Assembly (NCBI RefSeq): GCF_030384885.1
Contig: NZ_CP128613.1
Source of the DNA: Escherichia coli
Lineage (GTDB): Bacteria > Pseudomonadota > Gammaproteobacteria > Enterobacterales > Enterobacteriaceae
Strand: one strand, 5' to 3'
Length of the DNA stretch: 64,000 nucleotides
Both the position numbers and the translations under genes were made by a program. Positions 23,843-35,287 of the stretch are shown here, in pieces; position 1 is the stretch's first letter, and every line of letters begins with the position of its first letter. Under the pieces are notes generated by a model. It was not told the DNA's origin and searched no databases. It worked only from the letters and a program-made list of their open reading frames with translations.

Positions 23843-24841
23843 TTATAACGCCTGGATTTTTGCCCATACGCTGTCATCAACGGTAATACCGTTACGGCGG
23901 TTTTCTGCCAGCAGGGTGGTAAATTCGTGGCCGGGTAAGCGAATGGCCTGGTTTTCATCGGCGCGTTCAGCGGTGGTAATGTAATCCATGATACGTTGTA
24001 GCTTGGCATCGCGGGTGGCGCCGTCGATAAGCTTGTCCACTTCAACGGCGATAAAGATTTGCGAAACGCCATATTCGTCGCTGTTATCCTGGGTGACTTC
24101 GGCAACGGATGCGCCGTCGGAAAGGAGAGTAGCGATCATATCCAGCACGATCGACATACCAGAACCTTTCCAGTAGCCCATCGGCAAAATGCGGCGATTT
24201 TTTTCGATAATGCCAGGTTCTTTGGTCAAATTGCCCTTATCATCAAAGCCACCATCGACCGGGAGCTGACGACCTGCAAGGCGGTTAACTTCTAACATGC
24301 CGTAGGAAAACATCGACATCGACATATCGACCATAGTGATCGGCGTGGAAGGAATCGCGACGATCAGCGGGTTAGTGCCGATACGACACTCTTTTGCGCC
24401 CCACGGCGGCATTACGGCGATGGAGTTGGTCCAGCAAATGCCAATATAGCCTTTTTCCGCCGCCTGCCAGCCGTAGCTGCCGCCGCGCATCCAGTGGTTG
24501 GCATTACGCAACGCCACCAGACCAATACCGTGATCGGCAGCCAGTTCAATGGCGCGATCCATCATCTTTTTCGCTGTCAGGTTACCGATCGAACGCTGGG
24601 CGTCCCACTGTTCAATTGCGCCGAGGCTGGTTATACGTTTGGCTTGGGCATCAGGAATGATATCGCCGTTTTCCAGTTGTTGAATGAAACGAGGGAAACG
24701 GTTGACGCCGTGAGAATAAACGCCGGATTCGGTGGTGCGGGCGAACATTTCGGCACAGGCATCAGCCGTTTCGCTGTCAACGCCGCGTGAAATTAAGACT
24801 CGATTAAAGGCTGCTTTTAACTGCTCAAATGTCACTTTCAT
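23843..24841 (-). CDS. yiaK: 2,3-diketo-L-gulonate reductase
   Basis: 332-aa ORF, first gene of the yiaK-sgbE operon, recognised. Confidence 0.9.
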
Positions 24842-25041
24842 CCCTGGCTTCCTTGTTTTTTTGATCGCTTTTTTGGCTTAAAATTTCAATATGCGAAATC
24901 TGATTTCAAATATATCGATCGCTTTTTAACAAAGCAATCTGATTAATGAATTTCAAAAGACTTAAAAATCAATTGGTTATAAATTATCTGTCGAGATCGT
25001 GAACTACGGCACACTTTGCGCTACCATCAGGACGCGACAAA
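24842..25041. promoter_or_regulatory. Divergent yiaK / yiaJ promoter-operator region
   Basis: AT-rich 200 bp; repeated gatcgcttttt and atttcaa motifs; IclR-type regulator encoded adjacently. Confidence 0.5.
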
Positions 25042-25890
25042 ATGGGGAAAGAAGTGATGGGAAAAAAAGAGAACGAGATGGCGCAGGAAAAAGAGCGTCC
25101 AGCCGGAAGCCAGAGTCTGTTTCGCGGGTTGATGCTGATTGAGATTTTGAGCAACTATCCAAACGGTTGTCCGTTGGCGCATCTTTCGGAGCTGGCTGGT
25201 TTAAATAAGAGTACCGTCCATCGCTTATTGCAGGGATTACAATCCTGCGGCTATGTGACCACCGCGCCCGCCGCAGGGAGTTACCGCCTGACTACCAAAT
25301 TTATTGCCGTCGGGCAGAAGGCGCTGTCTTCGCTGAATATCATTCATATCGCCGCTCCGCATCTTGAGGCACTGAACATCGCCACTGGTGAAACCATTAA
25401 CTTCTCCAGCCGCGAAGACGATCACGCTATTTTGATTTATAAGCTGGAACCTACAACCGGGATGCTGCGAACCCGAGCTTATATAGGCCAGCATATGCCG
25501 CTCTACTGTTCCGCAATGGGCAAGATCTACATGGCGTTTGGTCACCCGGACTACGTGAAGTCATACTGGGAAAGCCATCAGCATGAGATCCAGCCGTTAA
25601 CCCGCAATACCATTACCGAGCTGCCCGCGATGTTCGACGAACTGGCGCACATTCGTGAAAGCGGAGCGGCGATGGACAGAGAAGAAAACGAACTCGGCGT
25701 CTCCTGTATTGCTGTTCCGGTGTTTGATATTCATGGGCGGGTGCCGTACGCCGTGTCGATTTCTCTTTCGACATCACGTCTGAAACAGGTGGGGGAGAAA
25801 AATCTCCTGAAACCACTGCGTGAAACCGCGCAGGCTATTTCTAATGAACTGGGATTTACTGTCAGGGACGACCAGGGCGCGATCACATAA
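25042..25890 (+). CDS. yiaJ: IclR-family transcriptional repressor of the yiaK-sgbE operon
   Basis: 282-aa ORF with IclR HTH, recognised. Confidence 0.9.
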   Translation: MGKEVMGKKENEMAQEKERPAGSQSLFRGLMLIEILSNYPNGCPLAHLSELAGLNKSTVHRLLQGLQSCGYVTTAPAAGSYRLTTKFIAVGQKALSSLNIIHIAAPHLEALNIATGETINFSSREDDHAILIYKLEPTTGMLRTRAYIGQHMPLYCSAMGKIYMAFGHPDYVKSYWESHQHEIQPLTRNTITELPAMFDELAHIRESGAAMDREENELGVSCIAVPVFDIHGRVPYAVSISLSTSRLKQVGEKNLLKPLRETAQAISNELGFTVRDDQGAIT

Positions 25891-33768: not shown

Positions 33769-35287
33769 GATGTTCGCTCCTCAATGCGGCTTCCATCACC
33801 TGCTCCTGAGTCAGGTTATGATTTATCAGGTTGGCTTTTAGTTTCCCTTCATGCATCACCAGTACACGATCGCTAAGGCCGAGCACTTCAGGTAATTCGG
33901 AAGAGATGACAATAACGGCAATACCCTGCTGGACGAGTTGGTTAATTAATTTGTAGATCTCGTATTTCGCGCCAATATCGATACCCCTGGTAGGTTCATC
34001 AAGAATGAGAATGCGCGGGTTGAGTAACAGACAGCGAGCGAGGATCGCTTTTTGCTGATTGCCGCCGCTCAAACGTCCAATAGCAAGGTCGGGGGACGAC
34101 GTTTTAACTTTGAGTTGCTGGATTGATTCCAGAATACATTTTTGCTCTGCCGCGTCATCAAGCTGGCTAATACCGCCGGTAAATTTATTGAGTGCGGCGA
34201 GGGTAATATTTTTACCAACCGCCATTACCGGAACGATGCCGTCGCGCTTTCTGTCTTCGGGTACCATCGCAATCCCCTGGGCGATGGCTTGCTGACAGTT
34301 ACGAATATCTACCTGTTTGCCATCAATATAAATTTTTCCTTCCCATTGTCCGGGCCACACGCCAAACAGGCACTGAATGGTCTCGGTACGTCCGGCACCA
34401 ACGAGTCCGGCAATACCCAGTATTTCGCCACGTTTCAGGGAAAACGAGACATCATTAACTCGTTTAATATGACGATTAACCGGATGCCATGCCGTCAGAT
34501 GTTCAATACGTAATATTTCATCTCCGGTGGTATGTGGTTCATTAGGGTAAAGCGCGGTTAACTCTCGCCCGACCATCATGGTGATAATATCGTCTTCACT
34601 CATTCCGGCAGCATCACGCGTACCAATGTGCTGACCGTCGCGAATAACGCAAATCGTATCGGAAATCGCTTTGACTTCGTTGAGCTTGTGCGAAATATAA
34701 ATACAGGCGATACCGTGCTGTTGTAGATCGCGAATAATATCCAGTAAAACCGACGTTTCCTGCTCAGTTAATGAGGCTGTCGGCTCATCGAGAATTAACA
34801 AGCGCACCTGTTTATTAAGTGCCTTAGCAATTTCAACCAGTTGTTGTTGCCCTAGCCCTAAATCGCCAACGCGGGTATCTGGTGAAATAAGTAAACTGAC
34901 CTGTGCGAGCAGCTTCTGACAGCGTAGCGTCATCAGATCATAGTCCATAATACCATTGTGGGTTATTTCGTTACCCAGGAAAATATTTTCCAGTACGGTC
35001 AATTCTTTCACCAGGGCCAATTCCTGGTGAATGATAGCGATACCTTTGCGTTCGGTATCGCGGATGTGACTCGCCTGAATCTCTTCTCCCGCAAAAATAA
35101 TGTCGCCTTCGTAGGAGCCATGGGGATAAATACCACACAGCACTTTCATCAGCGTTGATTTACCAGACCCATTTTCCCCGCAGAGTGAGACGATTTCGCC
35201 GGCATTCAACCGCAAGCTAACGTTATCAATTGCCTTCACACTGCCGAAGGTTTTGGTAATGTTCTTCATTTCAAGTAGATAAGGCAT
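33746..35287 (-). CDS. xylG: D-xylose ABC transporter ATP-binding protein
   Basis: Start at ATG 35287 ([12 protein letters not shown]) giving 513 aa; duplicated Walker A motifs. Confidence 0.92.

Follow-up and report, generated by a model that had tools for sequence, protein, structure and literature searches.

The KdgR operator of Dickeya and E. coli, which serves a regulator of the IclR family, is an inverted repeat of the AATRAAAYRNYRTTTYATT type. For the paralogous regulator YiaJ (PlaR) of E. coli, Ibanez et al. are said to have observed in 2000 that the protein binds an EMSA fragment running from -50 to +121, that the promoter depends on both CRP and IHF, and that IHF modulates yiaK-S. 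The plaR-yiaK spacer is among the highest gSELEX peaks and is the strongest EMSA target of purified PlaR/YiaJ; there, a palindromic PlaR box of 21 bp, given as ATnTGAAACnnnGTTCAnTT, overlaps with the mapped promoter of yiaK (PMC6958661). The likeness of this box to the KdgR box was pointed out by Shimada et al. in 2019 (PMC6958661). ChIP-exo places two YiaJ peaks in the spacer, one of them at the position of RNA polymerase on the yiaK promoter, and deletion of yiaJ strongly derepresses the operon (Gao et al., 2018; PMC6237786). Published work also indicates that L-ascorbate or galacturonate releases the repressor.

The window analysed here is a 64-kb stretch (64,000 nucleotides) of E. coli DNA, in which yiaK and yiaJ (plaR) diverge from a 200-bp control region at 24842-25041, according to the open reading frames, the RefSeq annotation and Pfam. 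The earlier note had named this gene pair correctly, including the IclR-family assignment of yiaJ. The region is the known control region of the yiaKLMNO-lyxK-sgbHUE operon and of the repressor gene, and its genic landmarks are as follows.

23843-24841, minus strand: yiaK coding sequence (Pfam Ldh_2, E 9e-104).
24839-24841, minus strand: yiaK start codon, from the list of open reading frames and RefSeq annotation in E. coli genomes.
24848-24854, minus strand: yiaK Shine-Dalgarno sequence AAGGAAG, read off the sequence, 6 nt before the ATG.
25042-25890, plus strand: yiaJ/plaR coding sequence as annotated, IclR family (Pfam HTH_IclR and IclR_C).

A 451-bp query around the locus finds matches, annotated as yiaK and yiaJ, in 4991 out of 5426 complete genomes of E. 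coli, strain 2013C-4282 being 100% identical. The spacer (34.5% G+C) is 98% identical to that of K-12 MG1655, with no indels. Where yiaJ is annotated to begin, with the ATG at 25042, the species-representative genome of E. coli, other Escherichia and other genera have AAG or AGG, and the sequence there resembles a Shine-Dalgarno element (AGGGGA). The true start of yiaJ is probably the ATG at 25057, which is Met6 of the annotated protein.

The segment of the spacer that compares most directly with the described boxes contains the following elements, with positions relative to the predicted yiaK start.

24891-24911: candidate 21-bp YiaJ/PlaR box ATGCGAAATCTGATTTCAAAT, about -10 to +11 of the yiaK promoter.
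24894-24899: half-site B, CGAAAT, the left arm of the dyad.
24900-24902: CTG, the spacer at the centre of the dyad.
24903-24908: half-site C, ATTTCA, the right arm of the dyad, contained in the second copy of ATTTCAA.
24883-24888, plus strand: half-site A, ATTTCA, contained in the first copy of ATTTCAA, +14 to +19.

The element CGAAAT-CTG-ATTTCA (24894-24908) is a KdgR-type inverted repeat and is likely to be the YiaJ/PlaR operator, predicted to sit on the yiaK start. Half-sites B and C span about +8 to -7, and the box abuts a conserved TATATT while covering the predicted start at about 24901. In a scan with the symmetrised PlaR consensus (GTTTCA, final AT), 24891-24911 agrees at 13 of 16 specified positions and is the only site of its kind in the spacer. 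When the printed consensus is read as ending in TT, there is no match at three or fewer mismatches, the window site having four. At yeeO/asnU, the second-best gSELEX target, the best match in 4.5 kb is AAAG-TGAAAC-CAC-ATTTCA-AATA (GTGAAAC-CAC-ATTTCAAATA), which is almost identical to the K-12 yiaK operator. The published forward EMSA primer maps upstream of this box, and no match to the reverse primer occurs in the locus, which leaves the end of that probe unconfirmed. The sequence AAAGTGAAACCACATTTCAAATA at 2681-2695 of locus L082 falls inside K-12 yeeO, some 150 bp into the coding sequence. At yiaK itself the published EMSA probe is 500 bp long and corresponds to 24542-25041 of the window. 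It spans all the candidate elements and so does not discriminate between models.

By composition the dyad is unremarkable. Centred on 24901, the inverted repeat ATATGCGAAATC-T-GATTTCAAATAT has arms matching at 10 of 12 positions, which spacer shuffles reach with p of about 0.11. It is, however, the element that is conserved. GAAAT-N3-ATTTC occurs exactly just once in the 64 kb. To assess conservation, 80 yiaJ-orthologue loci of Enterobacterales were collected, one genome per species (73-100% protein identity). The divergent neighbour is yiaK in 59 of the 80, where the spacers can be aligned, and motif counts were made over 58 species. Conservation along the spacer is sharply uneven, with near-invariant blocks at 24881-24920, at the AAATCA..TT core of 24965-24979 and at 24994-25031. 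Anchored on the palindrome, the ungapped pattern ATTTCA-N5-yGrAAT-N3-ATTyCAAA (24883-24910) is kept in 77 of 80 loci, where it lies 140-340 bp upstream of yiaJ.

Within this block, CGAAAT (24894-24899) is conserved in 48 of 58 species and the ATTTCA of half-site A is exact in 54. Among 71 distinct sequences the half-site bases are almost all invariant and the 3-nt centre varies between CTG, TCA, TCG and TTG; the half-sites carry 1.4-2.0 bits, versus about 1.0 bit at 24900-24902. For half-site A, five of six positions are invariant in these 71 sequences, loci with an ABC-transporter neighbour included. Two single bases, G24863 and C24877 (about +25), are invariant in 71/71 and stay in ungapped register with the operator. 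Their invariance holds beside an ABC ATPase gene too, though the surrounding bases are unconserved, and they are possibly distal contacts of a YiaJ tetramer. The site thus combines inverted-repeat form, co-inheritance with the regulator gene, and conserved half-sites around a variable centre. One exception is the uncultured Klebsiella MAG locus L028, where the yiaK-yiaJ spacer is about 150 bp and the whole operator/-10 block is absent; this is either an artefact of assembly or a natural deletion, which would remove control by YiaJ and perhaps the promoter as well.

The loci that lack yiaK separate the contribution of the regulator gene from that of its target. In 18 such loci that have the block, the core at 24881-24912 is 78-97% identical to the window (mean 90%), whereas the 32-bp flanks holding both copies of the 11-mer GATCGCTTTTT, a direct repeat considered below, drop to about 37%. 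This indicates that the conserved element follows yiaJ and not yiaK, and that it leaves out the 11-mers and the third ATTTCAA. The no-yiaK loci include those of Phytobacter and Raoultella; the upstream open reading frame was read in 11 loci of other genera and encodes an ABC-transporter ATPase in 10 of them. The genera with an ABC neighbour are Kosakonia, Affinibrenneria, Pectobacterium, Yersinia, Brenneria, Serratia and Edwardsiella (L022, L039, L051, L068-L081; 10 loci read). The operator is kept in most of these loci and is absent in L051. ABC sugar-transporter ATPase neighbours with a kept operator imply a different gene set under the same regulator.

Since the box lies on a promoter, its conservation has to be weighed against promoter function. 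The following elements were assigned to yiaK.

24909-24914, minus strand: putative yiaK -10, TATATT, conserved in 51 of 58 species.
24932-24937, minus strand: putative yiaK -35, TTGCTT, whose TTG (plus-strand CAA, 24935-24937) is present in 57 of 58 species.

Their spacing of 17 bp gives a predicted start at about 24901-24902, in agreement with the yiaK 5' end that Ibanez et al. reportedly placed 60 bp upstream of the ATG in 2000. A scan for a strict sigma-70 consensus promoter returned none, as expected for a CRP-dependent promoter. Between -10 and -35, GATTGCTTT-GTTAA-AAAGCGATC (24917-24939, minus strand) was flagged as terminator-like, its 9-bp inverted repeat running into a T-rich stretch. 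It includes the second copy of the 11-mer and is probably incidental, being limited to spacers of the Escherichia, Kluyvera and Pseudocitrobacter type.

Because the block overlaps the start site and the discriminator, part of its conservation could reflect promoter function. A stronger form of this argument holds that the block is conserved mainly as core promoter, or as the target of another regulator such as the paralogous KdgR, with YiaJ bound elsewhere in the spacer. The block does adjoin the -10 and cover the predicted start site, the PlaR and KdgR boxes are reportedly similar, each of the two regulators affects the mRNA levels of the other, and there are two YiaJ ChIP-exo peaks (PMC6237786). 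However, conservation reaches +19 and takes the form of a dyad with a variable centre, neither of which a core promoter requires. The block also travels with yiaJ when the divergent gene changes, and the spacer holds no other operator-like box to which YiaJ could be assigned, which makes this alternative very unlikely.

The consensus scan gave one strong YiaJ box and no convincing second one in the spacer. The repeat AATCTGATT (24897, 24936) was considered as a degenerate second box over the -35 and rejected, being unconserved even in the species-representative E. coli. Outside the spacer, TCAAAT-GTCA-CTTTCA (24825-24840) spans the yiaK start codon and is an operator-like dyad with a 4-nt centre and two mismatches. 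It could be a weak second YiaJ site, fitting the second ChIP-exo peak or the binding reported for -50 to +121. Its conservation is confounded by coding constraint (MKVTFE).

The position of the block downstream of the start also allows an RNA reading, in which ATTTCA...CGAAAT (24883-24899) would form a stem-loop at the 5' end of the yiaK mRNA and act on its stability or its translation. The pair falls at about +3 to +19 of the transcript, a stem of 6-7 bp can be drawn, and over 48 distinct sequences 93% of the cells are paired. Yet compensatory double changes are absent, the covariation score is reached by 495 of 500 column shuffles, and the A-to-G change at 24896, found in six sequences, breaks a base pair and is uncompensated. 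The E. coli 5' UTR moreover folds worse than its shuffles (MFE -3 kcal/mol, z = +1.4), and no Rfam match appears at E up to 1. A functional stem-loop is therefore extremely improbable. A cis-regulatory RNA, whether riboswitch or leader, was likewise set aside on the Rfam result, the weak fold and the absent covariation.

The most visible pattern in the spacer is one of direct repeats, and the earlier note had offered these as candidate half-sites for YiaJ and accessory factors. Apart from the two ATTTCAA copies that contain half-sites A and C, the repeats are placed as follows.

24863-24873, plus strand: first copy of the 11-mer GATCGCTTTTT, in the yiaK 5' UTR at about +29 to +39.
24917-24927, plus strand: second copy of GATCGCTTTTT, within the 17-bp spacer between -10 and -35, about -16 to -26.
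24950-24956, plus strand: third copy of ATTTCAA, in an A/T-rich tract upstream of the -35, about -49 to -55.

As a description of the letters, the earlier account was largely accurate. Both 11-mers are exact, at 24863 and 24917, with starts 54 bp apart and not about 60 as it had given; ATTTCAA occurs three times, at 24883, 24903 and 24950, and the three longer strings around it are exact at 24881-24892, 24901-24913 and 24947-24959. Both patterns are mildly beyond chance for an AT-rich spacer (shuffle p about 0.01-0.02): when the 200-bp spacer was shuffled 2000 times with its dinucleotides preserved, 1.6% of the shuffles had an exact direct repeat of 11 nt or more and 1.1% had three copies of any 7-mer within 80 bp. 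Across the 64-kb window ATTTCAA is found 14 times against 14.3 expected, without enrichment. A third GATCGCTTTTT in the window, at 34043 within a coding open reading frame, looks like chance.

That the two GATCGCTTTTT and the three ATTTCAA units are themselves half-sites for YiaJ or accessory proteins would be in keeping with their being real and locally over-represented, and with every one of them falling within the published EMSA probe. Parts of the 11-mers are also conserved. Copy 1 overlaps a moderately conserved GyTTTTT tract and its first base is the invariant G24863; it is exact in 16 of 58 species, with GATC in 21 and GCTTTTT in 35. Copy 2 retains GATC in 47 of 58, but the whole 11-mer there is exact in just two, and its GCTTTTT part, likewise present in 2/58, has a mean identity of 57%. 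Within E. coli (about 4990 genomes), copy 2 reads GATCACTTTTT, a 10/11 match, in K-12 and 78% of genomes (3899), versus 953 with GATCGCTTTTT, so that the exact repeat is a minority allele. The species-representative E. coli genome has GAACGCTTTTT at copy 1. The third ATTTCAA is exact in 1 of 58 species, other genera having TTTTCAA, TTTTTTA or TTTTTAA, and the spacer contains no partner half-site for it at operator spacing. The two 11-mers are not conserved as a unit in related genomes, and in no-yiaK loci with an ABC neighbour the flanks bearing them are at background identity. Furthermore, the boxes of IclR-family regulators, the published PlaR box among them, are inverted and not direct repeats (PMC6958661).

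Judged from sequence, then, the 11-mer repeat and the third ATTTCAA are lineage-specific AT-rich sequence and not operator units, and direct repeats acting as such are highly improbable. What survives of the earlier proposal is its assignment of the first two ATTTCAA copies to YiaJ, these being part of the block kept in 77 of 80 loci. The third copy and the 11-mer do not share in this, and the operator itself has the form of an inverted repeat rather than of direct repeats; its left half, CGAAAT (24894-24899), had been missed. Nor do the repeats coincide with sites for accessory factors, since the IHF and CRP sites both lie outside them.

Upstream of the yiaK -35, three further elements were located.

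24967-24979, plus strand: predicted IHF core AATCAATTGGTTA (consensus WATCAANNNNTTR, 9/9), about -66 to -78.
24995-25016: CRP site GATCGTGAACTACGGCACACTT, centred at 25005.5, about -104.5 from the predicted start.
25015-25031, plus strand: conserved TTTGCGCTACCATCAGG, mean identity 0.89 across 58 species, near operator level.

The centre of the yiaK CRP site is said to have been published as -106. The site in the window matches the CRP core TGTGA-N6-TCACA at 8 of 10 positions (24998-25013), is the only one in the spacer to reach at least 7/10, and is strongly conserved across genera. A second CRP site, reported in vitro, was not located by consensus in the spacer. The predicted IHF site consists of a perfect core preceded by TTAAAA, and its AAATCA..TT is conserved across genera. 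Price et al. (2008; PMC2395238) give an identical 22-mer for CRP at yiaK, with a score of 9.1 bits. The adjoining TTTGCGCTACCATCAGG is probably the yiaJ core promoter, with -10 TACCAT at 25022-25027 and a -35 overlapping the CRP site. A yiaJ -35 inside the CRP site would explain the reported repression of yiaJ by CRP. GATC is conserved at 24995 in 50 of 58 species, at 24917 in 47 and at 24863 in 21. More remotely, the conserved GATCs at -17 and at the CRP flank might make the switch Dam-sensitive; a literature search on Dam/GATC at this promoter returned nothing relevant.

The operator is polymorphic within E. coli at 24899-24900. The window allele GAAAT-CTG-ATTTC, which other genera share, occurs in 579 genomes; GAAAC-TTG-ATTTC, the allele of K-12, occurs in 3105 and changes T24899, and about 1300 genomes carry a different 33-mer. 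T24899 is conserved in 69 of 71 distinct sequences across genera, which makes the common K-12 allele the derived one. The K-12-type and ancestral-type operators are therefore a natural polymorphism that may affect repression.

A mechanism consistent with this layout can be outlined for the predicted B/C operator. A YiaJ dimer on the dyad would occlude the yiaK start and the edge of the -10 and so block RNA polymerase. The yiaK promoter would be weak and dependent on CRP and IHF, with CRP activating from 24995-25016 and an IHF bend at 24967-24979 placed between the CRP site and the promoter; the same CRP site would overlap the putative yiaJ -35. Half-site A shares a helical face with half-site C and follows it downstream at a distance of 20 bp, or two helical turns. 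No partner half-site for it is recognisable in the spacer, and its role as a YiaJ contact is thus one that we infer: most likely it would contact the second dimer of a YiaJ tetramer, the operator reaching into the early transcribed region. Taken further, and only tentatively, YiaJ might occupy an extended asymmetric operator of ~50 bp from the -10 hexamer to about +39, comprising the dyad, the third half-site, and C24877 and G24863 flanking the T-tract. A tetramer would then wrap the early transcribed region, and the K-12 allele would be a naturally weakened variant. This fuller model is possible but rather doubtful.

The system is already published, and what is added to it here is the third half-site, the two invariant bases and the operator polymorphism. 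For a promoter that is well studied but poorly mapped, the YiaJ/PlaR operator is thereby pinned, as a prediction, to specific bases, a matter of low wider importance. The eye-catching direct repeats appear not to be under selection, and the putative operator consists of an inverted repeat beside which a further half-site is conserved. For the ascorbate/2,3-diketogulonate operon, the base-level map could help in designing reporters or choosing point mutations.

With the PlaR box of K-12, the window site has in common the locus, the type of palindrome (TGAAAC-N3-GTTTCA-like), the repressor and, as predicted, the overlap with the yiaK promoter. It differs in that GAAAT-CTG-ATTTC is a perfect dyad shared with other genera, whereas K-12 has GAAAC-TTG-ATTTC. 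Half-site A, G24863 and C24877 receive no mention in the accessible part of the text on the K-12 PlaR system. The KdgR operator resembles the window site in its GAAAY-N3-RTTTC arrangement, its AT-rich flanks and its use by a repressor that is released by a sugar-acid ligand and that overlaps its promoter, as predicted for the window site. However, the window half-site ends in T and not in C as in the KdgR operator, and the regulator is a different IclR paralogue; against the KdgR consensus, the window site falls below 13/19 and no match reaches at least that score. Finally, the arrangement upstream follows that of catabolic promoters co-dependent on CRP and IHF, which likewise have a distal CRP core (here at about -104.5) and an IHF core between CRP and the promoter.
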